Source: Candidatus Saccharimonadales bacterium
Lineage (GTDB): Bacteria > Patescibacteriota > Saccharimonadia > Saccharimonadales > DATKHC01
Assembly (NCBI GenBank): GCA_035510465.1
Contig: DATKHC010000004.1
Coordinates: 6,481-70,480 of the forward strand
Length of the DNA stretch: 64,000 nucleotides
Reading direction: 5' to 3'
This document shows positions 10,908 to 32,356 of the stretch, piece by piece; the stretch's first letter is position 1; every line of letters starts with the position of its first letter. The translations under genes and the position numbers were made by a program. The notes beneath the pieces were generated by a model. That model had not been told where the DNA came from and searched no databases. It saw nothing but the letters and a program-made list of their open reading frames with translations.

Positions 10908-10911
10908 GGAC

Positions 10912-10940: not shown

Positions 10941-10947
10941 ATTCTTT

Positions 10948-11942: not shown

Positions 11943-11980
11943 TCAATCAAGGTTCGAAAATCGTCCCTTATTGACAGCCA
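11942..11980 (+). repeat. hairpin variant of the cassette repeat ending AGCCA
   Basis: GTCAATCAAGG-TTCGAAAATCGTC-CCTTATTGAC + AGCCA: a 10-bp imperfect stem with a T-loop-like TTCGAAA. It occupies the position of the 29-mer. Confidence 0.6.
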
Positions 11981-12026
11981 ATATTTCACCTCTGTGAGTT
12001 TTTATGCTCACCTCAGTTCGAATCCC
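11981..12026 (+). repeat. type-b linker module
   Basis: ATATTTCACCTCTGTGAG..CTCACCTCAGTTCGAATCCC; compare 15203, and 56446 and 57758 in reverse. Confidence 0.6.
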
Positions 12027-12081
12027 TTATGGGTTCCTCCGCAAAAAGTCGTTTGAAATTTGTGGCTGTTATTATGTAGTC

Positions 12082-12675
12082 ATGAGCGAATCAAAGTTAA
12101 ACATTAGTGAACTCCTTAATAGCAAACGACCCAAAGCTGGTAAAACGAAATTTATAGCAATAGATGGTCATGGAGGAGCTGGTAAATCAACTTTGGCTAA
12201 TATGCTTTCTAAACAATTTAACGCACAATTGGTCCCCATTGATGACTTTGCAAGCTGGGATAACTCTGATTGGTGGCCACAAGTTATAAAGAACATATTT
12301 GAGCCGATATCGGGTGGAGCAACTTCACTTAACTATCCTCGTTCTTCTTGGTGGGAGGATCATCACCCAGAGCCTGTTGTCAATCAACCGGTTACAGACG
12401 TAATGATTCTAGAGGGGGTAAGTTCCTCAAGAACCGAATTTCGTAAATATCTAAGTCTGATTATCTTCGTAAACACGCCTAAAGATCTGTGTATGAAAAG
12501 AGGCATCGAAAGAGACTTGAGCACCGGAAAATCTGTAGAAGAGCTGACGGAAATGTGGACAAAGTGGTATCAAGAAGAAGATGGATACATAGCTAGAGAT
12601 CACCCTCGGGATTTTGCTGATGTAGTGATCGACGGGACTCGACCTTACAATGAGCAAATAGTTACAGCCACTTAA
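12082..12675 (+). CDS. P-loop nucleoside/nucleotide kinase-like protein
   Basis: Walker A in IAIDGHGGAGKSTLANML. Start moved to MSESKLN because the track N-terminus overlaps the type-b module. Confidence 0.55.
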   Translation: MSESKLNISELLNSKRPKAGKTKFIAIDGHGGAGKSTLANMLSKQFNAQLVPIDDFASWDNSDWWPQVIKNIFEPISGGATSLNYPRSSWWEDHHPEPVVNQPVTDVMILEGVSSSRTEFRKYLSLIIFVNTPKDLCMKRGIERDLSTGKSVEELTEMWTKWYQEEDGYIARDHPRDFADVVIDGTRPYNEQIVTAT

Positions 12676-12686
12676 GCTTTTAGATT

Positions 12687-12715
12687 GTACGGAACTCAAC
12701 CTCAACCCCCAGCCA
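12687..12715 (+). repeat. 29-nt cassette repeat
   Basis: GTACGGAACTCAACCTCAACCCCCAGCCA. Confidence 0.85.
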
Positions 12716-12720
12716 TAAAG

Positions 12721-12765
12721 TTATTGTCTCTGTTATTTTACTGAGTATGAATATAGGATTCGAAC
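12721..12765 (+). repeat. type-c linker module, copy 2
   Basis: TTATTGTCTCTGTTATTTTACTGAGTATGAATATAGGATTCGAAC. Confidence 0.6.
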
Positions 12766-12771
12766 TTTGTT

Positions 12772-13686
12772 ATGATGAGTCCAGTTATGGACGACCATTT
12801 TGAAAAAAATGCCTTGAGTTGGGGAGAGGGTGGAGCAGCTTGGCTTAAGAGCATTCCAAAAGTTATCAAAAAATATGAAAGTAGGTGGTCGATTAAAGTC
12901 TTGCCGCCTTACACGCTTAGCTTTAATTACGTAGCGCCTGTCCAAAGGGCTGATGGATCGATGGCAGTACTTAAAATGATCTATCCGGGTGACCTGGAGT
13001 TTAAATCTGAAATTAAAGCGCTAGAATACTTTAAAGGTAATGGCATTGTTAAGCTGCTAGAAGTAGATGAAAAAGACGCGATAATTCTACTGGAACATAT
13101 TGCCCCGGGTAAACCGCTGTCTTCTTTAGATAACGACGATCAAGCAACCAAAATAATTGCCAAGGTTATAAAGAAATTACAGGAGAAATCATCAACTGCT
13201 AACAATTTTGTCAGTATCAATGACTGGGTTTCAGAAATACCAAAATATAAACAAGGATTTCTAGGTGAACAAGCTCCATTACCAACATTATTAGTAAATA
13301 AAGCTGAGATATTATTTAAACAGCTTATTGCAACTTCTGCTAAGCCTATACTTGTCCATGGTGATCTGCATCACGATAATATACTTCAATCAAATAAATC
13401 TGGATGGCTAGCAATCGACCCCAAAGGCGTTTCGGCTGAACCGGCTTACGAAGTGGCAGCTATGATTCGTAACCCCTACGAGAAGCTCAAAGATATACCA
13501 GATCTTGCACCTTTACTGCGAAGACGGATTACTATTTTATCCGAAGAACTAGAAATTGACCCCCAGCGTATTTTGGATTGGTGCTTTGCGCAGACAATGC
13601 TCTCAGCGGTATGGAGTGTTGGAGGAGTCAAAGGCCCCGAACACGCTCTAAGAGTCGCGGAAACTTTAGACACACTTGCACTTTAA
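12772..13686 (+). CDS. aminoglycoside phosphotransferase, APH(6)/streptomycin-kinase-like
   Basis: HGDLHHDNIL catalytic loop, LAIDPKG, and overall APH(6)-like layout. Confidence 0.7.
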   Translation: MMSPVMDDHFEKNALSWGEGGAAWLKSIPKVIKKYESRWSIKVLPPYTLSFNYVAPVQRADGSMAVLKMIYPGDLEFKSEIKALEYFKGNGIVKLLEVDEKDAIILLEHIAPGKPLSSLDNDDQATKIIAKVIKKLQEKSSTANNFVSINDWVSEIPKYKQGFLGEQAPLPTLLVNKAEILFKQLIATSAKPILVHGDLHHDNILQSNKSGWLAIDPKGVSAEPAYEVAAMIRNPYEKLKDIPDLAPLLRRRITILSEELEIDPQRILDWCFAQTMLSAVWSVGGVKGPEHALRVAETLDTLAL

Positions 13687-13689
13687 GCG

Positions 13690-13718
13690 GTACGGAACTC
13701 AACCTCAATTCCCAGCCA
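13690..13718 (+). repeat. 29-nt cassette repeat
   Basis: GTACGGAACTCAACCTCAATTCCCAGCCA; 3 nt after the stop. Confidence 0.9.
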
Positions 13719-13720
13719 TG

Positions 13721-13767
13721 TAGTTTTTCTCTCTGTTAATTTTGCGGTATGGTTATAGGATTCGAAC
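13721..13767 (+). repeat. type-c linker module, copy 3
   Basis: TAGTTTTTCTCTCTGTTAATTTTGCGGTATGGTTATAGGATTCGAAC. Confidence 0.6.
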
Positions 13768-13782
13768 TTTCTAATCCGTTAC

Positions 13783-13811
13783 TTGACATAACCATTAGCT
13801 TTACCTAAACT
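13783..13811 (+). promoter_or_regulatory. sigma70-like promoter TTGACA-17-TAAACT
   Basis: Same hexamers and spacing as 7686-7714. Confidence 0.55.
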
Positions 13812-13867
13812 GAAAGTATTCTTTAGAAATTAAAACAATGAAATAACAAACAAAAAGGAATTAAAGT

Positions 13868-15088
13868 ATGAAGCTTATTAAATTAAACCAAGCTGGTATA
13901 GCTCACTGGCTAGTGCCAGCCCTAGTAGTGGCTATAATTGGCGTGGTGGGCGTAAGAGTACTAACAGCTACTCATGCGGCTACGCCAGCAATAGCTAATA
14001 ATTCTTCTTCGACAGGTCCTTTGCTATTTACCACAATAAATAATAATCAGAACCCCGTCACAACTAGTGTAATAACTGTAAACCAAAACGGCTCAGGGAA
14101 ATCAACCATAACTCCACAAAATCAAGCGTATCCTTGGGGTTTCGTATGGAGTCCTGATCATACGCAAATTGCATACACAGATTTGGTATATTCCACTCCA
14201 AATGACGTCTCTACAGCAAGGGGGACGATTAACATAATGAATGATAATGGTACAGACTCACAAGTCATTAAAACAATGCCAGCAGGCTCAGGGCTATCTA
14301 ATTTAGTTTGGTCGCCCGACGGCAAAAGTCTTCTATTCGCGGATGGGTCGTCTACAAATAAGAAAGACAAGAGTAAAGTTTATACAATAGGAGTAAATGG
14401 CAAAAACTTAAATTCGATCGCTAATCTGGAGCCCAATACGGGTGCCCAAGACATGCAATGGTCTCCAAACAGCAAGGAAGTTCTACTTACTGGAGAGCCG
14501 AAGACAAACCCGCAAGAAGAGTTGACGTATGTGTATACCGCTTCGGGTAAATTAGTTGCTACCCTACCGACACCGAATAATAGCTCTTTCTGGGGTAACG
14601 ATGCCTGGACACCTGATAACTCATCTTTGATATTTCATAACAATACCAATAACGAGATTTCAGAGATGAATGTCGCCACTCAAGCAGTAACTGCTATAGC
14701 TCCGGCCTCTTGCAGTAGCAATGATGTATCTTCGGTCAACGTGTCACCGAATGGCGATTTAATATCCTATGACTGTGTAACACCAGTACCCGATACCACT
14801 CCTACCCAGTTTACTAACAGCATAGTAGTCTCTACCATTACAGGCTCTAACCCTGTCGTTGTCGCGTCAGGAATACTAAGTGAAGGTGTTAATAACGCAC
14901 TGCCAACAGAGCGAGGCTGGGCTTATAACAGTACGGCTCTGGATTATTACGTTAGTAGTACCCCAACATCTTCTAACGGTAATCTATACACCGTTAATGC
15001 TGATGGTTCAGATACAAAAGCAGCCCTTAAAAATGTCTCAAATACTGAGATATTCACTTGGAATAGTTCGCCCAGTAATATTTTTTAA
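13868..15088 (+). CDS. membrane-anchored/secreted TolB-like beta-propeller protein (paralogue of 7760..9028)
   Basis: First ~38 aa nearly identical to 7760..9028. PD40-like VWSPDHTQIAY, VWSPDGKSLLF, QWSPNSKEV. Confidence 0.65.
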   Translation: MKLIKLNQAGIAHWLVPALVVAIIGVVGVRVLTATHAATPAIANNSSSTGPLLFTTINNNQNPVTTSVITVNQNGSGKSTITPQNQAYPWGFVWSPDHTQIAYTDLVYSTPNDVSTARGTINIMNDNGTDSQVIKTMPAGSGLSNLVWSPDGKSLLFADGSSTNKKDKSKVYTIGVNGKNLNSIANLEPNTGAQDMQWSPNSKEVLLTGEPKTNPQEELTYVYTASGKLVATLPTPNNSSFWGNDAWTPDNSSLIFHNNTNNEISEMNVATQAVTAIAPASCSSNDVSSVNVSPNGDLISYDCVTPVPDTTPTQFTNSIVVSTITGSNPVVVASGILSEGVNNALPTERGWAYNSTALDYYVSSTPTSSNGNLYTVNADGSDTKAALKNVSNTEIFTWNSSPSNIF

Positions 15089-15173
15089 TTCTGTATAACC
15101 TGGCTAATCATTAAGTCACCGAATCTGTTAATTCTGATTCTATGGGTATAGGAGTGACTTATTTATCTGTACT

Positions 15174-15202
15174 GTACGGAACTCAACCTCAATTCCCAGC
15201 CA
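15174..15202 (+). repeat. 29-nt cassette repeat
   Basis: GTACGGAACTCAACCTCAATTCCCAGCCA. Confidence 0.9.
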
Positions 15203-15247
15203 ATATTTCACCCCTGAGTACATTTGCTTCCACCTCTGTTCGAATCC
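15203..15247 (+). repeat. type-b linker module
   Basis: ATATTTCACCCCTGAG..CCACCTCTGTTCGAATCC. Confidence 0.6.
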
Positions 15248-15298
15248 TTTATGCATACAGTAATAGATTTATAGAGCCAAATATTATATAATATTCGT

Positions 15299-15877
15299 AT
15301 GGCAAAGCAATTAGAAGTTGCGAATTGGGACGACTTAAAAGCTGTATCCGAGTTATCTGGTTTAATGTGGTCTCAAGCTGAACCTGGCTTCCAAATAGAA
15401 GGGGTCAGTGACATCGAGCAGTTAGTGTTCGTGCTAGATAGTTTAAAAACTGCCGTTCCCAAACAAGTGACAGGTGTGGTGAATTTTGATTCTGCTTATC
15501 CATGGAATGGGTTTGAACAATTTAAGCCAGAACCGCAAGATGCACATATCGATACTGATTTCACTGGTATAGCAGTACATCAAAATATCTCTACTACAGT
15601 CCCCGTAAAACTTGGTATAGCTAGGTACCCATGGAATGGTGGCACAATAAATGAAGATACGGCCACTGGAATTAGAGAAGGCGAAACAATTCCGGGTAGA
15701 TTGACGGTATTTTCAGAAGGATGGCCTGAGATGATGAGAAAGACGGCTCATTTTTTCGATCGAACAGCTGGTACACCTATTTTTTTGTCAAGATATACGC
15801 AATCTACTGATACGCCGGCGAATAATATACCTAAAATCGCTGCTGAAAGCTTTGAATTATTGAAAAGGTATCGCTAA
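15299..15877 (+). CDS. hypothetical protein
   Basis: ORF track; single gene between two repeat copies. Confidence 0.45.
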   Translation: MAKQLEVANWDDLKAVSELSGLMWSQAEPGFQIEGVSDIEQLVFVLDSLKTAVPKQVTGVVNFDSAYPWNGFEQFKPEPQDAHIDTDFTGIAVHQNISTTVPVKLGIARYPWNGGTINEDTATGIREGETIPGRLTVFSEGWPEMMRKTAHFFDRTAGTPIFLSRYTQSTDTPANNIPKIAAESFELLKRYR

Positions 15878-15881
15878 ACAC

Positions 15882-15910
15882 GTACGGAACTCAATCTCGA
15901 TTCCCAGCCA
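15882..15910 (+). repeat. 29-nt cassette repeat
   Basis: GTACGGAACTCAATCTCGATTCCCAGCCA, followed by AAGCGTAAGCGTTTT. Confidence 0.9.
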
Positions 15911-15973
15911 AAGCGTAAGCGTTTTAGGTTCGTTAATTTCGTTCGGCTATCAGATAAATTAAAATTGGAGAGG

Positions 15974-16528
15974 TTAATTAGAGCCTAAATATTTAAAAGA
16001 AGCAGCAATTGTCTTTATATCGTTTGGGTTTGGTTTAGTCGCTTGAATAGCGGCTTCATTACTAGTGTTAACTTGTTGACCAGGGCTGTAAGGAGCGATA
16101 TTTATCGCATACACCGTGGTGCTATTACCAAAAAATGAATTAAACTCCACAGGACTAACTGAATATTGACTAGGATTAGTGCAAAAGTTGGCATTTACGC
16201 CTATAGATTTAATAAACACTGAAAATGCCTGAACATTTTCAGTGTTTGAAGAAGATGAACAATTGTTGGAATTTTCTACAAGTTGTTGTGCTGACTGAGT
16301 GCTATTGTTAGGTCTTCCTGATAGCGACATCACAAGTGAGACACCCCCTTTACTAATAGGCGGAGAGACTAATACGTTATCAGTAACAGTACCGAAGTTG
16401 TAACTTTGAGTAGAAGAACCCTTATAGAAAAGTATGCTATATTTATCGCCTTTATCGTTGGTTAAGGTGTACTGTCTGAGCTTTGAGTTAATCAATGTCG
16501 CCCGTAAATTATAGTTAGTAGAGACCAA
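15974..16528 (-). CDS. hypothetical Ser/Asn-rich protein (TTG start; possibly the C-terminal part of a frameshifted gene)
   Basis: ORF track. Its frame stays open upstream to ~16570 and overlaps ORF 16492..16764. Confidence 0.4.
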   Translation of the reverse strand: MVSTNYNLRATLINSKLRQYTLTNDKGDKYSILFYKGSSTQSYNFGTVTDNVLVSPPISKGGVSLVMSLSGRPNNSTQSAQQLVENSNNCSSSSNTENVQAFSVFIKSIGVNANFCTNPSQYSVSPVEFNSFFGNSTTVYAINIAPYSPGQQVNTSNEAAIQATKPNPNDIKTIAASFKYLGSN

Positions 16529-16764
16529 TGCCCCAAACGTAGCCAGTGGCGCTTTGGCTTGTTAATTTGGGCCTGTGACAGAGAGGCGTAGCTGGTGCTA
16601 GTAGGATGGGAGTCAACGCTCGTGTTCGGTGACAAATTACTAGCTGTAACTTTAAGAGGTGTATCTGTTGTGGGCTGCTCTGGTACGGAGGGAGGAACGT
16701 TCGATTGTTCTGGCGAAGTAGGGTTTTGATTTTGCTCATTGTCCATCAAGATCAAATATAACAC
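16492..16764 (-). pseudogene. possible N-terminal fragment of the same gene (low-complexity Pro/Ser/Thr-rich leader ending in KPKR)
   Basis: Overlaps 15974..16528 in another frame; a 1-nt shift near 16540-16570 would join them. Confidence 0.3.
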
Positions 16765-16810
16765 TTGTGCTTATCTGAGCATAGTGAACAGGATGGATTG
16801 ACACTACGCT

Positions 16811-16839
16811 GTACGGAACTCAACCTCGATCCCCAGCCA
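16811..16839 (+). repeat. 29-nt cassette repeat
   Basis: GTACGGAACTCAACCTCGATCCCCAGCCA, followed by AGCATAAGCATTTTGA. Confidence 0.9.
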
Positions 16840-16926
16840 AGCATAAGCATTTTGACCTCTTATTTCTATTATCTGATAGAGCTTATTGGCTGACCCTTGT
16901 GTTTTTCTCTGTTAATATAGAACTAA

Positions 16927-18312
16927 ATGGATGAATTGAACCCACAAAAGCTGAAAGCAGCAGTTAAGTACATAAATTCCTGGCTTGAGGTTAACTTTGA
17001 AAACTCAAGGCTACCAGCAATGCAGGTTGCTATTCAACATGGCAGTAAGATCATTTACTCAGAAGCATTTGGATATTCGGACGTAAAAGCTAAAGAAAAG
17101 CTAAATACTAGAAATGTTTTTAGGATCGCTTCTCATTCAAAGACCTTTACCGCCACCGCGATAATGCTGCTAGTAGAAGCCGGTAAGTTAAATCTCGATG
17201 ACAAGGTCAACAAATACGTTAGCTGGTTTAAGTCATCTAAAGATAAAAGAGTACAGGAAGTAACAATTCGGCAACTTCTAAATCATACTGCTGGAATAGT
17301 TAGAGATGGCTATGATTCAAACTTCTGGCAATTGCTGCATGAATTTCCCGATAAGAATGAGCTTAAAGCTTTTATATCTGACAGTAAATTGGTATATGAC
17401 CCTGATGAAAAGTTTAAGTATTCTAACTTTGGGTTTGGTTATCTTGGGCAAGTAATTGAGGCCGTAAGTGAAGTTTCATACCGAGAATATGTGACAAAAA
17501 ACATCGTTGATAAATTGGGTCTTAAATCGACTGGCCCTGACCTAGACTCTAAAGCCAAGAAACTCTTAGCAACTGGTTACGGGATCGAAATATTTAACAA
17601 AGAACGTCGAGTATTTGATCATATCGACACGCATGCTTTGTCTTCTGCGACAGGCTTTTATAGTAATGCAGAGGATTGCTGCCGATATTTCGCTTCTCAC
17701 TTCATTGGCAATAACTCTCTGATTAGCGATAAGTCTAAACGTTTAATGCAGCATGGTTATTGGAAGTCAGAGGGTACAAAAGAACGCTACGGACTGGGAA
17801 TGGTAAATTATAAATTAAACAGCTGGAATATTTTTGGACATAGCGGTGGATTTCCTGGTTTTACGACAAATACAAAGTTTGATGCTAAAAAGCAGCTTGT
17901 TGTATCAGTTTTAATTAATGCTTACGGCACATACACCAGCAATATATGCTCAAAATTGATTAGTATTATTGATACCTTCCAGCAAGATACTGCAAACATC
18001 AAAACCGACGTTACTAATCTGAAGAAGTTTGAAGGAAGGTTTTTCTGTACATGGGGACCAACGGACGTAATTCTTGCGGGAAAGAAGCTACTCGCTATTG
18101 ATCCATTAAACTGGGCTGATTTTGAAGACTGCGAAGAATTGACCGTTTTAGATGAAGATACCCTAAAAATTGCAAAATCCAGTGGCTACGGTCATTCTGG
18201 TGAATTAATTAAGTATAAATTTGATTCTAAGGGTAAAATCACCTCCTTTACTTATGCGGGAAGAACAATGCTTCCTTTTAATGAAGCTCAAAAACAAGGG
18301 TGGTTTTCATAA
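16927..18312 (+). CDS. beta-lactamase-family serine hydrolase (class C / PBP4*-like)
   Basis: SxxK (ASHSK), YxN (KYSNFG) and HSGG box. Confidence 0.7.
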   Translation: MDELNPQKLKAAVKYINSWLEVNFENSRLPAMQVAIQHGSKIIYSEAFGYSDVKAKEKLNTRNVFRIASHSKTFTATAIMLLVEAGKLNLDDKVNKYVSWFKSSKDKRVQEVTIRQLLNHTAGIVRDGYDSNFWQLLHEFPDKNELKAFISDSKLVYDPDEKFKYSNFGFGYLGQVIEAVSEVSYREYVTKNIVDKLGLKSTGPDLDSKAKKLLATGYGIEIFNKERRVFDHIDTHALSSATGFYSNAEDCCRYFASHFIGNNSLISDKSKRLMQHGYWKSEGTKERYGLGMVNYKLNSWNIFGHSGGFPGFTTNTKFDAKKQLVVSVLINAYGTYTSNICSKLISIIDTFQQDTANIKTDVTNLKKFEGRFFCTWGPTDVILAGKKLLAIDPLNWADFEDCEELTVLDEDTLKIAKSSGYGHSGELIKYKFDSKGKITSFTYAGRTMLPFNEAQKQGWFS

Positions 18313-18344
18313 ACCTACAGATAAAATTATTACATCATTAAATC

Positions 18345-18373
18345 GTACGGAACTCAACCTCAATTCCCAGCCA
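18345..18373 (+). repeat. 29-nt cassette repeat (last + copy)
   Basis: GTACGGAACTCAACCTCAATTCCCAGCCA. ATAAGCACTATGGGCAAT at ~18399 resembles the variant repeat family of the middle array. Confidence 0.9.
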
Positions 18374-18710
18374 TTTGATTTAACAGGTGTGATTATACAT
18401 AAGCACTATGGGCAATAAAATTCTATCTCTGTTAAAATGTTCGAATCCTTTGCCCTTGAATTGTACTGTTAACTTATCTCCCTTGAACAGGCGGATGGTC
18501 AAAAACGTCGATGTCATTTACTAAGGCGTAGCCTAATACTGGTGTTATGGCTTTTGTACTAAAAACAAAAGCTGATTCTCCTGATGAAATTCCTACAGTG
18601 GTATCTTGATAAAGAACCGGATCAAAAGTTGTACTGGACCCATTATTCTAGACAGTATTGTCTACAATAAGTTGTAGCAATATAGCAAACTAGTAATAGG
18701 GGGTTCACTT

Positions 18711-18977
18711 ATGCCTAAACGTCACGTCATCCGTCCGGATGTTAAAGCCCAGGTATTAAAGAGGTTAAAAGAGGATGGTGTACCAGTAGCTAAGTTAGCT
18801 GAGGAACATGGTATATCTACTAAGACCATTTATGGATGGCTAAGCAGAGGCACAGTTAACAACCAGCCCAGCGTACTAGCCTACGCTAAACTTAAAAAAG
18901 AAAACCAGATGCTAAAAGAGCTGGTTGGGTTAGTTAGCTTAGAGCTACAGACAGAGAAAAAAAAGACCATCAGGTAA
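18711..18977 (+). CDS. IS3-family transposase OrfA (HTH)
   Basis: HTH (VAKLAEEHGISTKTIYGWL) and leucine-zipper-like tail; A8 run at 18957-18964. Confidence 0.8.
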   Translation: MPKRHVIRPDVKAQVLKRLKEDGVPVAKLAEEHGISTKTIYGWLSRGTVNNQPSVLAYAKLKKENQMLKELVGLVSLELQTEKKKTIR

Positions 18978-18984
18978 GCTACTG

Positions 18985-19797
18985 ATGGCTGCTACCACTA
19001 TTGCCCCAAAGACTCTCGTAGCTAAACAACTAGGCATAGCCCGCTCAACCCTGTATTACCAATCTAGGTTAAGCGTTAAAGACGAGCAGCTTAGACAAGA
19101 CATATACCAGGTATTGCATCTGCACCCCAGTTACGGTTACCGGAGATTGGCCATCCATCTGGGCATTAACAAGAAGCGGACACTTAGGGTTATGCAGATC
19201 TACGGGATTAAGCCATACCGTAGGCGAGGCAAGAAACCAAAGTATACTCCCTCGCCTAGGATGGTAGATGCTGATCTACCTAACCTCATAGCTAACTACT
19301 TCCCATTAGCTTCTGGTGATGTCTGGGTTAGTGACTTTACCTACCTGCCATATGGCGGCAGGTTTATCTATGTAGCTACCATAATGGATTTGTACTCTAG
19401 GGAGATCGTCGGTTGGCAAGTCAGCACTAAACACGATACAGCCTTAATTGCCATGGCCTTTTATGCTGCCCTAGAAGCTTATGGTAGGCCAGAGATATTG
19501 CACTCTGACCGTGGCAGTGAGTATTTATCTCAGATCTACATTGAACTAGCTACCAATTGCGGTATTAACATGTCCTACTCTGCAAAAGCTAGCCCATGGG
19601 AGAATGGCTACCAGGAGAGCTTCTACAATGGCTTCAAGGTTGATCTAGGAGATCCGGGTAGATTCGTTGACATTGGCCAACTAGTTGAAGCTATTCACTT
19701 ACAGCTATATATTTACAACCACTACCGTATCCATTTAGCTTTGAAGATGGCGCCAAAACAATACCTAGCCCAACAGGCTACATTAGTTGCGGCTTAG
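18985..19797 (+). CDS. IS3-family transposase OrfB (DDE/rve integrase core)
   Basis: WVSDFTY (D), LHSDRGSEY (D), ENGYQESF (E). Confidence 0.8.
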   Translation: MAATTIAPKTLVAKQLGIARSTLYYQSRLSVKDEQLRQDIYQVLHLHPSYGYRRLAIHLGINKKRTLRVMQIYGIKPYRRRGKKPKYTPSPRMVDADLPNLIANYFPLASGDVWVSDFTYLPYGGRFIYVATIMDLYSREIVGWQVSTKHDTALIAMAFYAALEAYGRPEILHSDRGSEYLSQIYIELATNCGINMSYSAKASPWENGYQESFYNGFKVDLGDPGRFVDIGQLVEAIHLQLYIYNHYRIHLALKMAPKQYLAQQATLVAA

Positions 19798-19882
19798 GTT
19801 GTAGACAGAAGTGTCCGAAAAACGGGGTCCTTGACACCTAGAAAATAGGGAAGTAATCACAATGATTTCCGAACAGGTTATT

Positions 19883-19993
19883 TTAATTTGAGATGTACCC
19901 GATAGTAAAGGCAACAGTAAAAACAATAATAACGATGATTATTACGACATCAAGGCCGATTTTTTTAATCTCCTTCTCAGTCTTCTGCTTCAT
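19883..19993 (-). CDS. small TM ORF abutting the IS right end (possible remnant of an interrupted gene)
   Basis: Hand translation: MKQKTEKEIKKIGLDVVIIIVIIVFTVAFTIGYISN. Below the track cutoff. Confidence 0.2.
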   Translation of the reverse strand: MKQKTEKEIKKIGLDVVIIIVIIVFTVAFTIGYISN

Positions 19994-20024
19994 GGTCCCA
20001 TGTTAGCATAACGCTACTTGTGCT

Positions 20025-20047
20025 TGGCTCGGGCTGCAGTCGGATTT
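20025..20047 (-). repeat. variant (tRNA-Asn-3'-end-like) repeat V1
   Basis: TGGCTCGGGCTGCAGTCGGATTT; compare 24652 and the tRNA-Asn end TGGCTCCGGAGGCCGGATTCGAA. Confidence 0.6.
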
Positions 20048-20196
20048 TCTACTGTCAGAGAGCTTCTAGCCCTAACCTATGCTGAAGGGGGAATTGCACT
20101 TTCCTTTACAAAAATTCCTAAGCTCATTTTACCGTCGTTACTAAATAAGGAACCTATTACATTCTGCCACCCAATTTCGGGGACAAGTCGATCTAA

Positions 20197-20505
20197 CTAA
20201 TCATGATAGTCAACTAATCCAGCTGGGTCATCTTGCCAATAAGGAAACTCAACTACTATTTTATAACCCGTCTTTTCAAGAATACTATCTGAATCAAAAG
20301 TGGCTAGTTGTCCAAGCGTCTTCATTATTTCAACTCCAACTTCAGCAAAGGCCTCGTGTGAAGGAGGAATCACAGAGCGGCGATGAAGTTCAGCCCAACC
20401 TTGTAATGGCCCGTATTTTCTAAAGACGCTAGTGAGATCAAGGTTAGGGTACCCTTCAGCTGGGTACTTTCCTGGTATTTGCTCGGGCTCAATCTCTCTC
20501 GGCAT
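20197..20505 (-). CDS. hypothetical protein
   Basis: ORF track; no motif recognised. Confidence 0.4.
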   Translation of the reverse strand: MPREIEPEQIPGKYPAEGYPNLDLTSVFRKYGPLQGWAELHRRSVIPPSHEAFAEVGVEIMKTLGQLATFDSDSILEKTGYKIVVEFPYWQDDPAGLVDYHD

Positions 20506-20576
20506 AATGATTCACTCAACAGTTATATGGGCATAAGTATTTGTCATTAGTTATAAATATGCAACCATAAGCACTT

Positions 20577-20603
20577 TGGTTCCCACTAGTGGACGTACTT
20601 CGC
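20577..20603 (-). repeat. variant repeat V2
   Basis: AACCATAAGCACTT + TGGTTCCCACTAGTGGACGTACTTCGC. Confidence 0.5.
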
Positions 20604-20638
20604 ATCTTTGAAGTTAGCAATGAAAGTTATTCTTACGA

Positions 20639-21001
20639 CTACGGATTAACAGTGATTGCTTGAGCCTGATTATTTGGGCCTACATTGATCGCCACAGTTT
20701 CACCTAGATGAATATCGTTCTCACTGAACTGTTGTGGAGTCCCGCCGCCTGCTGATTTCGGTAAGCCTAGTATGGTTGTATTCGTAATGCTGTATGTCTT
20801 GGAAATGGAACTGCCACTTGGCCGAATCGTGATGCTCATAGTGTTAACTGCCGTCACAGTACCAGTGATAGGACTGTGCAAATAAGCAAGAAAGCCAAGC
20901 GCTGCAACCACTAAGATGAGCATCACAATCACAACCCATACGGTTCGCTTTGGCTTATGCGCGACAGCTGTTTCTGTATGGTCGTTTGGGTACTTATCCA
21001 T
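20639..21001 (-). CDS. small single-pass membrane protein
   Basis: KPKR followed by the TM helix TVWVVIVMLILVVAALGFLAYL. Confidence 0.5.
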   Translation of the reverse strand: MDKYPNDHTETAVAHKPKRTVWVVIVMLILVVAALGFLAYLHSPITGTVTAVNTMSITIRPSGSSISKTYSITNTTILGLPKSAGGGTPQQFSENDIHLGETVAINVGPNNQAQAITVNP

Positions 21002-21162
21002 TCGTCCTTATTATAAGAGCTTGGGCTTACCTAGCAAGAAATTAGGCTATAGAAAACTAGATTCTTGCTCAAAACCGTCCATATTGATCTTTTAATTTTG
21101 TAAAATTTTTTACAGACCGTAGAGTATGAAGGCAATTATAATTACACAGAAGGTTGGTTTAG

Positions 21163-22131
21163 GTGATGGCTAAGATATATCTGTTTTGCTCTGCCGAGCA
21201 GTTCCATCCGGAGGTGATAGTTAAACAGGCCATATTGGCCGAGGAAGTCGGCTTCGATGGAGTGATGATTTCTGAGCACTTTCATCCGTGGGTGCACGAT
21301 GAGGGAACTAGTGGTTTCACGTTTTCAACGTTGGGTGCCATTGCCGCCAAAACTAAAAGAATTAATCTGATGACGGCCGTTACCACACCATTATTTCGTT
21401 ATCACCCAGGGGTGGTGGCACAGGCAGCTGCTACAATTGACCGACTGAGTGATGGTCGTTTTGAGCTCGGTATTGGCTCCGGCGAAAATATAAATGAAAA
21501 ACCGCTTGGCTATAATTTTCCTGGCTATGCTGAACGATCTAAAAGATTAGTTGAAGCTATTGAAATTATCAGACGTTTACTTAACAGCGAGGGGTTAGAT
21601 TTTAACGGCGAATTTTATCAAACAAATTCCGCAAAGTTATATAGTCCTCCTTCCCACACAGTACCTATTTTCTTAGCTGCAGGTGGGGCGCAAACAGCTT
21701 CCACAGCCGTTAAATACTGCGATGGCATGATTGTCAGCGTTAAAGATGTTAATGAAACCAAGGAAATACTAAAAACAATCAGCCCAACAAAAGCTAGTAG
21801 CTTTAAGATAATAGCAAGCCGATGGTCAATTTACGCCCAGACAGATGAACAAGCCTGGCAGGCGCTACTGCCTCAGAGAGGACTTAGGGCACCAAGTCGT
21901 GGCACAGCTGGACCTAAGGAGTTACAACGAGAGGCTGACAGCATGCCTAAAAGTGATATACTCAGCAAATACCACCGCTTAAAAACCCCAGAGGATTACA
22001 TTTCTGCCTACTCGCCACTCATTACCGATATTAAGGCCGATGTAGTGGGTATCCAGACAACTTCACTTGACCAACCAAGGACCATTAAAATGCTGGGTAG
22101 GGAAGTGCTACCTAAGTTAACTAAATTATGA
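21163..22131 (+). CDS. luciferase-like (LLM class) flavin/F420-dependent oxidoreductase
   Basis: ISEHFHPW and GRFELGIGSGE patterns typical of LLM proteins. Confidence 0.65.
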   Translation: MMAKIYLFCSAEQFHPEVIVKQAILAEEVGFDGVMISEHFHPWVHDEGTSGFTFSTLGAIAAKTKRINLMTAVTTPLFRYHPGVVAQAAATIDRLSDGRFELGIGSGENINEKPLGYNFPGYAERSKRLVEAIEIIRRLLNSEGLDFNGEFYQTNSAKLYSPPSHTVPIFLAAGGAQTASTAVKYCDGMIVSVKDVNETKEILKTISPTKASSFKIIASRWSIYAQTDEQAWQALLPQRGLRAPSRGTAGPKELQREADSMPKSDILSKYHRLKTPEDYISAYSPLITDIKADVVGIQTTSLDQPRTIKMLGREVLPKLTKL

Positions 22132-22144
22132 GAGGAGCAATTTT

Positions 22145-23020
22145 ATGAAAGTTGGATTGCAAATAAGTCGTTTCAATTTTTCTGGTGGTGCCAAAAAGAT
22201 TGGAGAAAACGTTAAGAAGATATCTGTTGCAGCGGAAGACGCTGGCTTCGACAGTATTTGGGTGATGGATCATTTCTTTCAAATTGGGCATCTCGGCCCA
22301 TATACAGATCCCATGCTTGAAGCCTACACAAGCTTAGGATATATAGCTGGCGTCACCAAAAAAGTAAGCCTGGGTACAATGGTAACCGGTGTCATATACA
22401 GAGAGCCTGCACTACTAATAAATGCTGTTACCACGCTCGATGTTTTATCAGGAGGCAGAGCCTATCTAGGAATAGGAGCTGGTTGGAATGACCAAGAAGC
22501 CAATGCTCTAGGCTTCTTAGATCCCTTGCACTCAAGGCGTTTCGAGAGGCTTGAAGACGCCTTGCAGCTTGCTCTAAAGATGTGGTCTGGCGATTCAACA
22601 GGGTTTAAAGGTAAAGTCTATGAACTTAAGGAGCCATACCTGTCACCACAGCCCGTATCACGCCCCCATCCGCCCATACTGATTGGAGGCGGGGGTGAGG
22701 AGAAAACCCTTAGGTTAGTGGCTAAGTACGGCGATGCCTGTAACTTATTCGCTAGAGACATGGAGCAGTTGGCCCACAAACTTGAGGTACTTAAGAAGCA
22801 TTGCAATGAACTAAAAAGACCCTATGAGCAAATTGAGAAGACAGCTCTTGCCGGTAGAGACATAACAAGCACCGCGAATAATCCTAAAGAAACTCTAGAG
22901 CTGGCTCAACGTTTAAGCGAATTAGGGATTGAACACATCATGTTTTCTAATAGTACCGACGCAGATGTCCAGTCTTATAAGAAGCTTGAGAGCGTGGTTG
23001 AAAAAATTCACAAGATGTAG
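22145..23020 (+). CDS. luciferase-like (LLM class) flavin/F420-dependent oxidoreductase
   Basis: WVMDHF and GRAYLGIGAGW patterns. Confidence 0.65.
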   Translation: MKVGLQISRFNFSGGAKKIGENVKKISVAAEDAGFDSIWVMDHFFQIGHLGPYTDPMLEAYTSLGYIAGVTKKVSLGTMVTGVIYREPALLINAVTTLDVLSGGRAYLGIGAGWNDQEANALGFLDPLHSRRFERLEDALQLALKMWSGDSTGFKGKVYELKEPYLSPQPVSRPHPPILIGGGGEEKTLRLVAKYGDACNLFARDMEQLAHKLEVLKKHCNELKRPYEQIEKTALAGRDITSTANNPKETLELAQRLSELGIEHIMFSNSTDADVQSYKKLESVVEKIHKM

Positions 23021-23553
23021 TGGTATCTAGAGGTTTTACGATGATAGCAAACGAATTGATACAAGACGCATTTTATAGGATAAAGGAAATCGTTCATCAA
23101 ACTGTGGAAGGCACGAGTATTGACGAGTTAAGTTTTAGACCAGCTAAGTCGGCCAACTCCATAGCATGGCTAGTTTGGCACCTAACTCGAATTCAAGATG
23201 ATCACGTATCTGCCATGGCTGACGGCAACCAGATCTGGTTAAAACAATGGCATGAGCAATTCTCGTTACCGTTTAACGCAGAAGACACGGGCTATGGGCA
23301 TAGCCCAGAAGATGTAGGTAGGGTTACGGTAGAAGCTAAGCTTCTGCTCGGCTACTACGATGCAGTACATGACAAAACGATAAAGTTTACTCAGAGATTA
23401 AATGAGAAAGATTATAAGAAAGTGGTTGATAAGCGGTGGGACCCACCTGTTACATTAGCCGCAAGACTTATCAGCGTTATATCTGACGACCTTCAGCATG
23501 CCGGACAGGCTGCTTATATTAGAGGGTTGTCCAGAGGGTTAATATCCAATTAG
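23020..23553 (+). CDS. DinB-family protein
   Basis: WLVWHLTRIQDDH and a C-terminal DDLQHAGQAAY four-helix metal-site pattern. Confidence 0.55.
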   Translation: MVSRGFTMIANELIQDAFYRIKEIVHQTVEGTSIDELSFRPAKSANSIAWLVWHLTRIQDDHVSAMADGNQIWLKQWHEQFSLPFNAEDTGYGHSPEDVGRVTVEAKLLLGYYDAVHDKTIKFTQRLNEKDYKKVVDKRWDPPVTLAARLISVISDDLQHAGQAAYIRGLSRGLISN

Positions 23554-23588
23554 TCGTCTAAAAATAAATGTTTATGAATACTTATAGA

Positions 23589-23612
23589 TGGCTCGCCTTG
23601 GTTGACCAGGTC
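23589..23612 (-). repeat. variant repeat V5
   Basis: CTTATAGA + TGGCTCGCCTTGGTTGACCAGGTC; 6 nt downstream of the stop at 23618. Confidence 0.45.
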
Positions 23613-23617
23613 AGAAA

Positions 23618-24046
23618 TCAAATAGTGGTTTCCTTGGCATACCAAGAGTTTACGAATACTACCGCTAGTTCGTCATATAGTTCACGAGAGCCAGGGGTTA
23701 CCTGAAGCATCCCTTGAACAAAAGGATTTTCTGGGTCATATCTTACTCGTGAAAAAGAATTATCGATCCTTTCAAATTCACGACTATGCAATAGTTCTGA
23801 AAAAGTCGAGCTTAGTGTTGGTGAATCTCCATGTATCGGGTGAGGTCTAATACTGAAGTGAGGACTTAGGCCTTCCACGTTTCCCCTAAGACAAGTATAT
23901 GCTTCAGCCATTGCTTCATGAATCCTCGGGTCATGCGTACTGAACCAAAACGGGTGGCCAAGTCTCTTTGCGGCAGAGTAGAATACTCCTCTTACAAAAT
24001 CAACTGCTAGTAGTTCCGTTGGCCTTGGTTCCGTCTCTTTTGCCAT
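23618..24046 (-). CDS. hypothetical protein
   Basis: ORF track. Confidence 0.4.
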   Translation of the reverse strand: MAKETEPRPTELLAVDFVRGVFYSAAKRLGHPFWFSTHDPRIHEAMAEAYTCLRGNVEGLSPHFSIRPHPIHGDSPTLSSTFSELLHSREFERIDNSFSRVRYDPENPFVQGMLQVTPGSRELYDELAVVFVNSWYAKETTI

Positions 24047-24091
24047 TTAAGCTAATTGTATACTTCAATGAGATATAAACCATAAGCACTT

Positions 24092-24115
24092 TGGCTCCGC
24101 TTACCCGACATATTC
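24092..24115 (-). repeat. variant repeat V3
   Basis: AACCATAAGCACTT + TGGCTCCGCTTACCCGACATATTC. Confidence 0.5.
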
Positions 24116-24180
24116 AGAACTGACTACTATAAATCAATAATGAACGTTGGCAGGGAATTAGAGAGTGGGCTACTCGGACT

Positions 24181-24594
24181 TCAGTCAGAGCTCGGAGCGG
24201 TTTGATGGGCTTCTTTGTCAACTGGCTGCAAGTTATAACCAGGTATTAAGAAGCGGTCGGTCGTTAGTTCTAGTTCGTTAGAGCCCCACAATTCGGATAT
24301 TGCATCTCCACAAATTTGCACTTTACGTTCTTCGTCTTGTGTTAGTACCCTAATACCCGTAACTTGCTCTATAATATCTTCTCTCTTGACAGGTAGACCT
24401 TGTTCTCTAGAAAATAATTCCCTTACTAATTGCTTGGCTGCGTTTTTTTGTCTTTCCCAGCGTACTTCAACACCTTCGGATGAATGTAAATCTTCTTTAA
24501 ACTGAGCGATGCGTCGAGCATCTACCCGTCTCGCCTCTAATAAATATGGGTCTGTTAATTCTCCTGAAAGTGGCCTATCTATGTATGATTTCAT
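24181..24594 (-). CDS. hypothetical protein
   Basis: ORF track. Confidence 0.4.
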   Translation of the reverse strand: MKSYIDRPLSGELTDPYLLEARRVDARRIAQFKEDLHSSEGVEVRWERQKNAAKQLVRELFSREQGLPVKREDIIEQVTGIRVLTQDEERKVQICGDAISELWGSNELELTTDRFLIPGYNLQPVDKEAHQTAPSSD

Positions 24595-24651
24595 TACTCA
24601 TATTCACTTAATAATCCTACTTTAGGTCCGAGAATACAACCAGAAGCACTT

Positions 24652-24674
24652 TGGCTCGGGCTGCAGTTGGATTT
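24652..24674 (-). repeat. variant repeat V4
   Basis: AACCAGAAGCACTT + TGGCTCGGGCTGCAGTTGGATTT; 6 nt downstream of the hicA stop. Confidence 0.6.
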
Positions 24675-24679
24675 AAGAA

Positions 24680-24901
24680 TTATTTTTTAATGCTTGGATT
24701 AGTGAAAACTTTGTTATCAAGACCTGATTGCCGAATTATAGACCTGAATGTGCCAATTGGGATTTCTTTCCTAGGCGTTGGTACAATAACCGTGTTTGAA
24801 GCTTTTCGGTATTTTGCGTGACTCCCTCGCTGAGAAACAAATACAAAACCTTGATGTTGGAGTACCTTGATAACTTCTTTTGATGAGAGTAACTTAGGCA
24901 T
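24680..24901 (-). CDS. hicA: HicA-family toxin
   Basis: SSKEVIKVLQHQGFVFVSQRGSHAKY is the HicA pattern; 8-nt overlap with hicB. Confidence 0.75.
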   Translation of the reverse strand: MPKLLSSKEVIKVLQHQGFVFVSQRGSHAKYRKASNTVIVPTPRKEIPIGTFRSIIRQSGLDNKVFTNPSIKK

Positions 24902-25121
24902 GTTGCAAACGAAGTGTATGGACAGTGGGGTGCTCTACATTTGTAGAGTAGTTGTCCCGTGGCATATCTTCTAAGTACAATACAAGTGCCTCTTGCAGGT
25001 TAGCTAAGGCTTCTTTTTCACTCTCTCCAAAACTAGAGACATCAACATTAAGACACTGGGCAACATAATATTTGCCCTCTTTGTATACAACTGATTGGTA
25101 GGTAGTTTGAGCCATAGCCAT
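24894..25121 (-). CDS. hicB: HicB-family antitoxin
   Basis: Start moved to MAMAQTTYQ because the track N-terminus runs through tRNA-Asn. YVAQCLNVDVSSFGESEKEALANLQEAL is the HicB N-domain pattern. Confidence 0.7.
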   Translation of the reverse strand: MAMAQTTYQSVVYKEGKYYVAQCLNVDVSSFGESEKEALANLQEALVLYLEDMPRDNYSTNVEHPTVHTLRLQHA

Positions 25122-25147
25122 ATTATACCACTTTATTACTACTAATT

Positions 25148-25222
25148 TGGCTCCGGAGGCCGGATTCGAACCGGCAACCGTCGCCTTAACAGGGCGCTGC
25201 TCTACCGTTGAGCTACTCCGGA
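25148..25222 (-). tRNA. tRNA-Asn (GUU), CCA encoded
   Basis: Hand fold: acceptor TCCGGAG/CTCCGGA, D stem GCTC/GAGC, anticodon loop CTGTTAA, T arm GCCGG-TTCGAAT-CCGGC, then GCCA. Confidence 0.9.
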
Positions 25223-27506: not shown

Positions 27507-27596
27507 GGAAGAGTGTCCGAGTGGTTGAAGGAGCACGCTTGGAAAGCGTGTATGCGGGCAACCGTATCGCGGGTTCGAATCCCGCCTCTTCCGCCA
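27507..27596 (+). tRNA. tRNA-Ser (GGA), CCA encoded
   Basis: GGAAGAG acceptor, anticodon arm CACGC-TTGGAAA-GCGTG, long variable arm, T arm GCGGG-TTCGAAT-CCCGC. Confidence 0.9.
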
Positions 27597-31225: not shown

Positions 31226-32356
31226 TTAGTAGTTCCTAAATACTAAAGCTATATTTGCTTGGGAGATATTAGCGCCTGTCTGGTTAATGTTTGCAAGACT
31301 AATCGAAACTGGTACGGCGTTAGTAGTAGCTGAAAGAATACCCATACCAGAATACCAGTTCACCGAAGTTGCAGTTAAGGCTCCTATCTCACCATAATTA
31401 AGAGCAGTTGCGATTTGGTTACCTCCATACATTGAAAGAGTTTGAGCTAAGTTGGTAGTAGCCGTTCCCACTGAACTTGAGTTAGTGCTGAAACCAAAGC
31501 CCACATAATATTCGCCAGGAGTCATATTTATATTAACTGGGACTGATATAGGCCGAATAGCCGAGTTAATTGATGACCAACTAGCCGAGTTGGAAGCGTA
31601 CTGATAAGTTGTGTGAGTTGAACCACTCGATACACTAGATAAAGTTTGACCATTAAGAGTATAAATCCCAGCAATAGCGGTCAAGGCAATAGCGGCGGTA
31701 TTAGCAGCAGCTGACGTACCCGCACTCCATGAAACAAGAGCATCTAGTCTGGTAGCCGTAATCCAGTTATCAGCATTAACATATTGAATAGAATAACTAG
31801 CATTAGCAGGAGCTGAGATCAGAGTAAGCATCCTATCTGGATAGAGACTGCGAGATAACATAGGGTGAATACTGCCCGTAATAGTTGAACCGTTAGTAGA
31901 GAAACTAACTCCGGCTGTGCCCACCATACTTGAAATAGCGGGCACAGAGAACAGAACTGATTGTGCTCCTGAGCTTATAGTCAGTGGTGCTCCGCCATTA
32001 TTGGACATTACTACCGTGCCTGATGTGAATGTAGCGTTAGAAGCTGCAATAGCTACACCTGAAGGCACGGTGTATGATCCTGTCATCGTTGAGCCATTCA
32101 AGCCAAATGCCAATCCATTTGAGTTAGAGAAGGTTATAGCTGACAGGTTGTTGCTGGTAGAGCCACCAGAAACGTTAATGGCAGATATAAGCCCTGCAAT
32201 TGAAGGCACGGTGTATGATCCTGTCATCGTTGAGCCATTCAAGCCAAACGCCAATCCATTTGAGTTAGAGAAGGTAACTTGAGTTAGGTTATTTGAAGTT
32301 GCACCGGCTGAAACATTAAGCGAACCCGGGGCGTTAGAAAAAGGGAGTAACGCCAT
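31226..32356 (-). CDS. fibre-like protein with internal 47-aa repeat
   Basis: TFSNSNGLAFGLNGSTMTGSYTVPS occurs twice. Confidence 0.5.
   Translation of the reverse strand: MALLPFSNAPGSLNVSAGATSNNLTQVTFSNSNGLAFGLNGSTMTGSYTVPSIAGLISAINVSGGSTSNNLSAITFSNSNGLAFGLNGSTMTGSYTVPSGVAIAASNATFTSGTVVMSNNGGAPLTISSGAQSVLFSVPAISSMVGTAGVSFSTNGSTITGSIHPMLSRSLYPDRMLTLISAPANASYSIQYVNADNWITATRLDALVSWSAGTSAAANTAAIALTAIAGIYTLNGQTLSSVSSGSTHTTYQYASNSASWSSINSAIRPISVPVNINMTPGEYYVGFGFSTNSSSVGTATTNLAQTLSMYGGNQIATALNYGEIGALTATSVNWYSGMGILSATTNAVPVSISLANINQTGANISQANIALVFRNY
32061..32275 (-). repeat. two 74-bp near-identical direct repeats (32061-32134 and 32202-32275), period 141 bp, inside the gene
   Basis: GAAGGCACGGTGTATGATCCTGTCATCGTTGAGCCATTCAAGCCAAA[T/C]GCCAATCCATTTGAGTTAGAGAAGGT; one mismatch. 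Confidence 0.85.

Follow-up and report, generated by a model that had tools for sequence, protein, structure and literature searches.

A probable stack of very small gene units at the 3′ end of tRNA-Asn in a Saccharimonadales bacterium

Bacteria of the Candidate Phyla Radiation (CPR) have tiny genomes, and their routes of gene gain are poorly understood. Here we ask how a row of short genes came to lie behind the tRNA-Asn gene of a Candidatus Saccharimonadales bacterium, within a 64,000-nt stretch of contig DATKHC010000004.1 (the whole of which we call the window), where an earlier note on the same DNA had described a repeat array at positions 20025–25222. This region probably comprises five or six very small gene units (0.5–3 kb) stacked behind an anchoring tRNA, and we put at roughly 0.55 the probability that the units were stacked at the tRNA-Asn 3′ end by site-specific recombination. 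As the note had claimed, the repeat-bounded series of small units begins at the 3′ end of an intact tRNA-Asn(GTT) gene (25148–25222, minus strand), called by both ARAGORN and Rfam (RF00005, 68.4 bits) and serving as the anchor. The gene encodes its CCA; its end is written ..CGGAGCCA, and its last 6 nt, GAGCCA (25148–25153), are the core shared with the array.

Read on the tRNA-sense (minus) strand, the five junctions of the array (R1–R5) all face one way, lie between genes at 24–170 nt past a stop codon, and have one boundary form throughout, a left arm, GAGCCA and a right arm. Junction R1 (24638–24674) reads AAATCCAACTGCAGCCC-GAGCCA-AAGTGCTTCTGGTT, that is, a 23-nt left arm, the core and a conserved right arm. 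The right arm recurs in R2 (24078–24099; ..GCGGAGCCA-AAGTGCTTATGGTT, that is, ..GTAAGCG-GAGCCA-AAGTGCTTATGGTT), which has 8 nt (CGGAGCCA) in common with the tRNA-Asn end, and in R4 (20563–20583; ..GTGGGAACCA-AAGTGCTTATGGTT, that is, ..CTAGTGG-GAACCA-AAGTGCTTATGGTT), which carries one core change. R5 (20012–20047) reads AAATCCGACTGCAGCCC-GAGCCA-AGCACAAGTAGCG, and its 23-mer is identical to that of R1 at 22 of 23 positions, bearing out a near-identical copy reported at 20025. R3 (23589–23594) is weak and consists of the core alone (..CCAAGGC-GAGCCA-TCTATAAGTATTC); it is placed 24 nt past the stop codon of orf142 in a 64-nt intergenic gap, where the chance of a GAGCCA on that strand is about 0.016. 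The copies previously listed at 24092 (R2), 23589 (R3) and 20577 (R4) do exist as sites, but R3 shares just the 7-nt TGGCTCG and the three left arms are unrelated to each other.

The repeats, their positions and their core can be read directly from the DNA, and their frequencies exceed expectation. The 20-nt junction AACCAKAAGCACTTTGGYTC, noted before as an outer flank common to three copies, occurs three times (20563, 24078 and 24638) against 0.01 expected, with no further copy in the 64-kb window, and the 23-mer TGGCTCGGGCTGCAGTYGGATTT occurs twice (20025 and 24652) against 0 expected. A right arm of about 24 nt, which holds promoter-like hexamers, is common to three units (orf137, orf142 and orf102), and a left arm of 23 nt to two (hicBA and orf102). 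On the tRNA-sense strand, GAGCCA stands at four intergenic junctions in 805 nt of intergenic DNA (0.2 expected), the fifth junction having GAACCA. The 5.2 kb of the array, 8% of the window, hold 6 of the window's 14 minus-strand copies of GAGCCA (P = 5 × 10−4).

The window holds three repeat sets, namely the tRNA-Asn array and two large arrays to its left and right, and they differ in the core. Six nucleotides from the CCA end, a G stands in 5/5 sites of the tRNA-Asn array and in 0/21 sites of the other two (Fisher's exact test, 1.5 × 10−5), which have C or T there, C being the base of tRNA-Gln-type ends. Confined to the four sites whose definition does not involve this base, the test gave an exact probability of 1 in 12,650 (8 × 10−5). 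In each array this core base equals the base of the anchor tRNA.

Does the likeness to tRNA-Asn reach beyond the core? The earlier note had proposed that the variants mimic the tRNA-Asn 3′ end and had named, as evidence that would speak against this, copies scoring no better than background in an alignment with that end. We compared 25 nt per site with the last 25 nt of the tRNA, taking every CCA-ending 25-mer of the window as background. Conditioned on CCA in this way, the identity gave P = 0.16 for R1, 0.03 for R2, 0.16 for R3, 0.28 for R4 and 0.08 for R5; with a 3-nt gap allowed, R1 reached 0.02 and R5 0.009. Beyond the core, R1, R2 and R5 are marginal and R3 and R4 lie at background, so that this part of the proposal was not supported, and the outcome named as speaking against it was observed in part. 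The mimicry is real for the 6–8-nt core and not demonstrable past it. A scan of genome contigs with the flanking FtsX/MacB protein returned no relative, and no related genome with another filling of the tRNA-Asn locus; we infer integration at tRNA-Asn from the anatomy of the locus.

What do the junctions enclose? Unit 1 is a toxin–antitoxin pair sitting exactly between tRNA-Asn and the first repeat, as had been described: a hicB-like antitoxin gene (24894–25121, minus strand; PHROG 497 HicB-like, 3.3 × 10−5) and hicA (24680–24901, minus strand; Pfam HicA_toxin, 6.6 × 10−18). The hicB ATG lies 26 nt past the tRNA-Asn CCA, with a TATAAT shortly upstream of it. The count of single hypothetical genes after hicBA, formerly given as three, is corrected to four (137, 142, 120 and 102 amino acids). 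Unit 2, between R1 and R2, is orf137 (24181–24594, minus strand), an orphan gene without a Pfam, NCBIfam or PHROG match, which among 5.8 billion proteins matched only itself (VMR34_01105). Unit 3, between R2 and R3, is orf142 (23618–24046, minus strand), a hypothetical gene that likewise has no match in the three collections and whose identical copies come from the same organism only.

Unit 4 spans 20639–23553 overall and includes the previously reported LLM–LLM–DinB block (21163–23553), confirmed here as two F420-type LLM oxidoreductases (21163–22131 and 22145–23020; Pfam and NCBIfam, the pair scoring 277 bits to TIGR03560 and 222 bits to TIGR03557) and a mycothiol transferase/DinB protein (23020–23553; Pfam, and NCBIfam MST_Rv0443 at 225.6 bits with a cut-off of 170). 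These three cofactor-enzyme genes lie on the plus strand, opposite to the rest of the array. The membrane-like, 120-amino-acid orf120 (20639–21001, minus strand) belongs to unit 4 or forms a separate unit; a possible extra junction 5′ of it (around 21018–21035) overlaps a promoter-like match. Unit 5, between R4 and R5, is orf102 (20197–20505, minus strand), a hypothetical gene without a Pfam, NCBIfam or PHROG match. In sum, the array carries orphan genes, a toxin–antitoxin pair and a block whose cofactors are of actinobacterial type. Saccharibacteria usually have Actinobacteria as hosts, and F420 and mycothiol are both typical of these; this suggests that the unit 4 cofactor genes were taken up from an actinobacterial host.

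Beyond R5 the array ends in a 36-codon membrane-like open reading frame (ORF; about 19883–19993, minus strand) and an IS3-family element (about 18630–19836, its ends read by eye) with orfA at 18711–18977 and orfB at 18985–19797 (Pfam rve, 2.7 × 10−23); Logan contigs break at 19807, inside the IS3 stretch. Together these occupy 18630–19993 and part the tRNA-Asn array from the last site of the left array (18345–18373). The earlier observation that the two series meet head-on near an IS3 element stands, the transposase genes covering 18711–19797. A junction-like 20-mer at 18395–18414 was not counted, having 6 mismatches and falling within the range of shuffled sequence.

The two large arrays show the same architecture on a larger scale. 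The left array (6286–18373, plus strand) carries at least 10 copies of the 29-mer GTACGGAACTCAACCTCGATTCCCAGCCA, and the right array (54113–60653, or to 61050 with its anchor, minus strand) carries 10 copies of it in the other orientation. Together they comprise about 25 units of the same small size, each with a near-invariant 29-mer that ends in CCCAGCCA and usually lies about 10 nt past a stop codon; neither is as small or as degenerate as the tRNA-Asn array. Stacks of single-gene units behind tRNA-type sites make up about 40% of the window's DNA. Aligned in register with the CCA end, the R1/R5 23-mer matches the 29-mer at 15/25 positions (P = 0.005), in agreement with the view that it is a variant of the main repeat; R2–R4 gave P = 0.04–0.17, and an nhmmer profile of 21 copies of the 29-mer matched none of R1–R5. 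The core AGCCA is common to all sites of the three arrays except R4 (AACCA) and two large-array copies (GGCCA and ACCCA), and the right flank of R5, AGCACAAGTAGCG, is similar to AGCATAAGC, the flank found after the right anchor and after most 29-mers. The 29-mer itself matches the 3′ end of a relative's tRNA-Gln at 16/25 positions (P = 0.002), and another species carries an exact copy in its 780-kb chromosome (OY969420.1; L003:7246-7274), next to unrelated genes. Conservation of a non-coding site at 100% beside changing cargo is the pattern to be expected of a recombination site. For the variants of the tRNA-Asn array no comparable evidence from other genomes was obtained; their external matches all come from this one organism, in an unchanged gene order.

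The right array is anchored by a tRNA-like 3′ fragment (61016–61050, minus strand). As a real tRNA this anchor was rejected, being called neither by ARAGORN nor by Rfam even at E ≤ 1. It is related to a second anchor fragment at L005:12262-12330, also without a tRNA call from either program; both consist of a T-arm and an acceptor end ..CCCAGCCA and are preceded by a shared ..AGCAAGT.. segment that recurs in pieces within the arrays (9156–9204 and 56383–56431). Two units of the left array encode an APH(6)-type aminoglycoside kinase (12772–13686; Pfam, 3.8 × 10−46) and a 461-amino-acid protein of the beta-lactamase family (16927–18312; 1.3 × 10−60), cargo of the resistance type that integrons also carry. 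Facing pairs of 29-mers, 20–90 nt apart, occur at 56371–56519 and 7581–7671 and could be a trace of inversion between oppositely oriented sites.

We suggest that units lacking a recombinase but carrying a left arm–GAGCCA–right arm site would recombine with the tRNA-Asn end one after another. Every insertion would restore the tRNA-Asn end and displace the older units outward, making hicBA the newest, and each junction would consist of the left arm of the unit nearer the tRNA and the right arm of the next. The right arm has −35-like hexamers that are followed some 17 nt later by −10-like ones, so that each unit would come with a promoter of its own. Loss of hicBA would join tRNA-Asn ..CCGGCCTCCGGAGCCA to AAGTGCTTCTGGTTG, and loss of the whole array would join ..CCGGCCTCCGGAGCCA to AGCACAAGTAGCG; excised circles would read AAATCCAACTGCAGCCCGAGCCA+AATTAGTAGTAATAAAG (hicBA), GTCGGGTAAGCGGAGCCA+AAGTGCTTCTGGTTG (orf137) and AAATCCGACTGCAGCCCGAGCCA+AAGTGCTTATGGTTGCAT (orf102). 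The enzyme would have to act in trans: scans of 20025–25222 with Pfam, NCBIfam and PHROG found no recombinase. The best candidate would be a large serine recombinase (LSR) at the left edge of the window, or else a paralogue elsewhere in the genome; the earlier note did not mention the LSR element, which offers the most likely mechanism. Going by sequence, we hold it possible, though doubtful, that this LSR is itself the enzyme acting on the tRNA-Asn array.

The LSR gene (1–1573, minus strand) has the first 524 of its 561 codons in the window and matches Pfam Resolvase, Recombinase and Zn_ribbon_recom. Among the scanned ORFs and flanks, no other serine or tyrosine site-specific recombinase was seen in the window or beside it, the IS3 element having a DDE transposase; the Pfam scan took in 70 ORFs, that is, the window's larger ones, and precomputed Pfam matches were used for the flank genes. 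A helix-turn-helix protein of 192 amino acids is encoded beside it (1605–2183). The far end of the LSR element is a 49-codon frame without a start codon (5486–5635, minus strand) that opens with TGGCTG; the CAGCCA at 5630–5635 is the junction of the element with the left array, which starts there. The frame, read from 5635 to 5486, is conserved in four genomes with its stop codon in the same alignment column (alignment A1), and it starts TGG CTG in frame with the ..NPAWL of the LSR.

Orthologues of the LSR with 54–70% identity were compared. At locus L009 the LSR ORF (10001–11725) runs antisense into an intact tRNA-Gln(CTG) (11648–11721; ARAGORN), and CTTGGCTG stands at both ends of the 7.7-kb element (3941–11725). 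These comparisons show the LSR ORF extending across its own attachment site. After excision as a circle, the ORF would read through the site into the 49-codon frame, and insertion would swap that tail for codons from the antisense tRNA. The broader family supports this picture: many of the 120 listed LSR homologues end in tails such as GRGERTRTSDLRVPNAAR or GRGERTRTSDL.., and one of them with 35–40% identity (P0054; locus L016) has a recombinase ORF (4001–5728) that overlaps tRNA-Pro at 5632–5707. Two contigs of 5,667 nt with 30-nt terminal overlaps (L014 and L015) are exact rotations of one 5,637-bp circle, and the recombinase borne on that circle, from a CPR relative with 35–40% identity, has a long tail that is not tRNA-derived. 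In the window's own genome the LSR (L005:10611-12300) has a tail, WLGLLDSNQT, that enters a tRNA-like 3′ fragment ending ..AATCCCAGCCA that has no ARAGORN call.

The junction cores of the LSR element are CAGCCA(AG) in the window, L008 and L009 (the CAGCCAAG core at the tRNA-Gln 3′ end) and AGCCA in L010; the GAGCCA(A) cores of the tRNA-Asn array share AGCCA with them. Beyond the element end, further TGGCTG-type sites with small genes lie in two of three orthologous loci (L009 and L010). L010 has a small array of its own (sites at 310, 1065, 5372, 4616 and 6113, sharing TGGCTGAGCA with the element end), a truncated tRNA-Gln 3′ fragment at 4616 and a second serine recombinase of 434 amino acids (2626–3930). 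At L008 an IS110-family element (385–1350) lies 18 nt from the end of the LSR element (TGGCTGCAC..), with GCTTATGCTT-type junction motifs just past it at 100–270. The idea that R1 is a leftover of a recombinase's C-terminal coding end was discarded: R2 and R4 carry an in-frame stop in the same motif, and conservation of the motif is consequently not coding.

If such units stack, can they be caught moving? A metagenome scan with the 23-mer returned the same organism only, and scans of viral contigs with the tRNA-Asn end, the 29-mer and the recombinase returned no match; three viral-contig matches to an 18-mer junction had no extended similarity and were taken as chance. Two unitigs of SRR8676597 (L002 and L020) overlap by exactly 30 nt: one stops at 25147, one base past ..GAGCCA, and the other begins at 25176, which places a graph branch (k = 31) within one or two bases of the predicted crossover. 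This break after ..GAGCCAA is suggestive, but no more, of population heterogeneity at the junction.

Several observations count against stacking by recombination, or against the LSR as its agent. The break at tRNA-Asn could come from a single-base variant, and a second break in SRR8676597 lies inside the mycothiol-transferase gene (23282–23311). Among the retrieved copies (Logan and JGI contigs) there is no variant arrangement, empty site or circular unit; every further copy of the locus comes from this organism and keeps its gene order. Unlike the large arrays with their uniform 29-mer, R2, R3 and R4 have left arms that are related neither to one another nor to the tRNA; R3 is matched over just 6–7 nt, and the conserved right arm may owe its conservation partly to a promoter role. 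The LSR, although the nearest recombinase, lies 18.5 kb from the tRNA-Asn array, its close clade appears to target tRNA-Gln (from hand-decoded tails, with ARAGORN confirming L009 only), and a weak search, with a synthetic query joining the LSR C terminus to the antisense translation of tRNA-Asn, returned two unrelated fragments only and no recombinase with a tRNA-Asn-derived tail. The arms of R1–R5 are also unlike the element's own arms by sequence. Furthermore, serine integrases normally do not reuse the hybrid sites left by an earlier insertion, CcrAB of SCCmec being a more permissive precedent.

Could the locus instead be a decayed tRNA island, in which larger, integrase-bearing elements inserted at tRNA-Asn and deletions left remnants of attachment sites, the present units never having been mobile? 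Islands of Prochlorococcus are one of the well-documented cases of tandem insertion at a tRNA that leaves partial tRNA copies and degenerate remnants (bioRxiv 10.1101/2020.12.28.424599), and the heterogeneous left arms and degenerate R3 and R4 are what decay predicts. However, the array has five boundaries in 5 kb, each beside a single intact gene, with no integrase fragment detectable by Pfam; the near-identity of three right arms over 20 nt and the 22/23 identity of two left arms argue for shared functional sites and not for independent decay, and the two large arrays repeat the pattern in about 25 units of the same small size. We therefore regard decay as unlikely. Less probable still is a regulatory origin, in which a few small genes would have in common the 20-mer, as promoter or operator, and the 23-mer, as a signal at their 3′ ends, with tRNA-Asn adjacent by coincidence. 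The right arm does end in TTGCAT/TTGTAT-like hexamers about 17 nt before the −10-like hexamers of the next gene, and the region has 18 promoter-like matches against 10.6 in shuffled sequence. Yet the conserved block takes in the GAGCCA core, which precedes any −35 element, that core is the end of the tRNA with its sixth base tracking the anchor tRNA in each array, the 20-mer is absent elsewhere in the 64 kb, and the 23-mer lacks terminator features, the junctions folding no better than shuffles (z −1.8 to +1.1). The promoter-type scan and these folds also leave a terminator or structured-RNA reading of the repeats unsupported.

The row of single, mostly orphan genes with a toxin–antitoxin pair, and repeats soon after stop codons, also recalls an integrase-less integron cassette cluster (CALIN), whose cassettes would be moved by a tyrosine integron integrase on folded attC sites. 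This we consider highly improbable: no Phage_integrase match was present in the 70 Pfam-scanned ORFs or the flank genes, none of the seven intergenic junctions contains an RYYYAAC...GTTRRRY pair 40–140 nt apart, and no attC-like hairpin was seen, the folds of single-stranded DNA giving z −1.8 to +1.1 against shuffles. Moreover, the three enzyme genes of unit 4 are on the opposite strand, and the array adjoins a tRNA, not an attI site. Modules of the Xer/dif type (pdif), which are 28-nt 11-6-11 dyads in alternating orientation, were set aside as well, R1–R5 having the same orientation, no dyad by eye and no inverted-repeat pair.

How, then, does stacking at tRNA-Asn compare with known systems? 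In Streptococcus thermophilus, integrative and conjugative elements and cis-mobilizable elements accrete in tandem at tRNA-type islands. Tycheposon islands of Prochlorococcus arise by tandem insertion anchored at tRNAs, with units lacking an integrase relying on an enzyme in trans (bioRxiv 10.1101/2020.12.28.424599). Like such islands, the tRNA-Asn array has an intact tRNA at one end and, as far as the core goes, copies of the tRNA 3′ end between units, newer units would push older ones outward, and units without an integrase would need an enzyme in trans. Unlike them, its units are single genes of 0.5–3 kb and not elements of several kilobases, the shared tRNA segment is only the extreme 6–8 nt, and the array has no integrase, the candidate enzyme being an LSR and not the usual tyrosine integrase. 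The array has some features of tRNA islands only, with an anchor tRNA, repeats in the form of a short core and no resident integrase. With integrons and CALINs it shares rows of promoter-poor or orphan cassettes, toxin–antitoxin pairs and a site near the stop codon, and one enzyme acting in trans would serve many cassettes. In contrast to them, it has neither IntI, attI, attC cores nor folded attC, its sites end in tRNA-like ..AGCCA, and its units appear to bring their own promoters; it is not a member of the integron family.

Large serine recombinases, CcrAB and CcrC, move SCCmec and composite arrays of staphylococcal cassette chromosome (SCC) elements at rlmH (orfX) in staphylococci. The likeness lies in an LSR that inserts at the 3′ end of a conserved gene and in tandem stacks that include recombinase-less elements and short direct repeats. 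Here, however, the target is a tRNA end and not rlmH, the units are 10–50 times smaller, and the candidate LSR comes from a family specific to CPR, with an ORF that extends across the attachment site of its element. The last trait, which concerns the LSR element and not the tRNA-Asn array, recalls archaeal integrases of the SSV1 type, tyrosine recombinases with attP within the integrase gene, which is split in two on integration. In both, integration at a tRNA alters a recombinase ORF that contains the attachment site, but the serine recombinase keeps all its domains and swaps only the last 10–50 residues. Our searches of the accessible literature on Saccharibacteria, Patescibacteria and CPR turned up neither arrays of this kind nor serine recombinases that target tRNAs.

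More broadly, and tentatively, Saccharimonadales may have an integron-like gene capture run by a large serine recombinase, with cassettes carrying tRNA-end-like ..AGCCA sites and several anchors. The anchors in this one genome would be a tRNA-Gln-like site, a tRNA fragment and tRNA-Asn, the tail swap on insertion might be a built-in switch between inserted and free states, and the tRNA-Asn array would be a cassette sub-family tuned to a second anchor by one core base (G, not C). The whole 25 kb from the tRNA-Gln-like site, left of the window, to tRNA-Asn appears to be accreted DNA, filled from both ends. The main value of the tRNA-Asn array is that it presents the same architecture at a genuine, different tRNA with a matching core change. 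If the units are mobile, they would form a compact gene-capture device comparable to an integron but built from other parts, and this array would show the device working at more than one anchor. The cargo of the stacked units includes toxin–antitoxin pairs, antibiotic-modifying-type enzymes and genes for the actinobacterial cofactors F420 and mycothiol, which point to uptake from the actinobacterial hosts of these epibionts. Recombinases whose ORFs read into tRNA genes may also interest developers of serine-integrase genome engineering, since their targets are conserved tRNA ends.

The remaining features of the window lie outside the arrays. GC content is about 41% across its whole length, and three tRNA genes were called in all by ARAGORN and Rfam: besides tRNA-Asn, these are tRNA-Ser (27507–27596, plus strand) and tRNA-Leu (43071–43157, minus strand). 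Between core genes and the right array sits a gene for an 852-amino-acid, coupling-protein-like protein (48750–51308, minus strand) that combines a HerA-type ATPase domain with a TraG/TraD C-terminal domain. A tandem direct repeat of about 126 nt (32053–32319; 81% identity, spacing 141 nt) falls inside a 376-amino-acid ORF that has a weak tail-fibre-like match.

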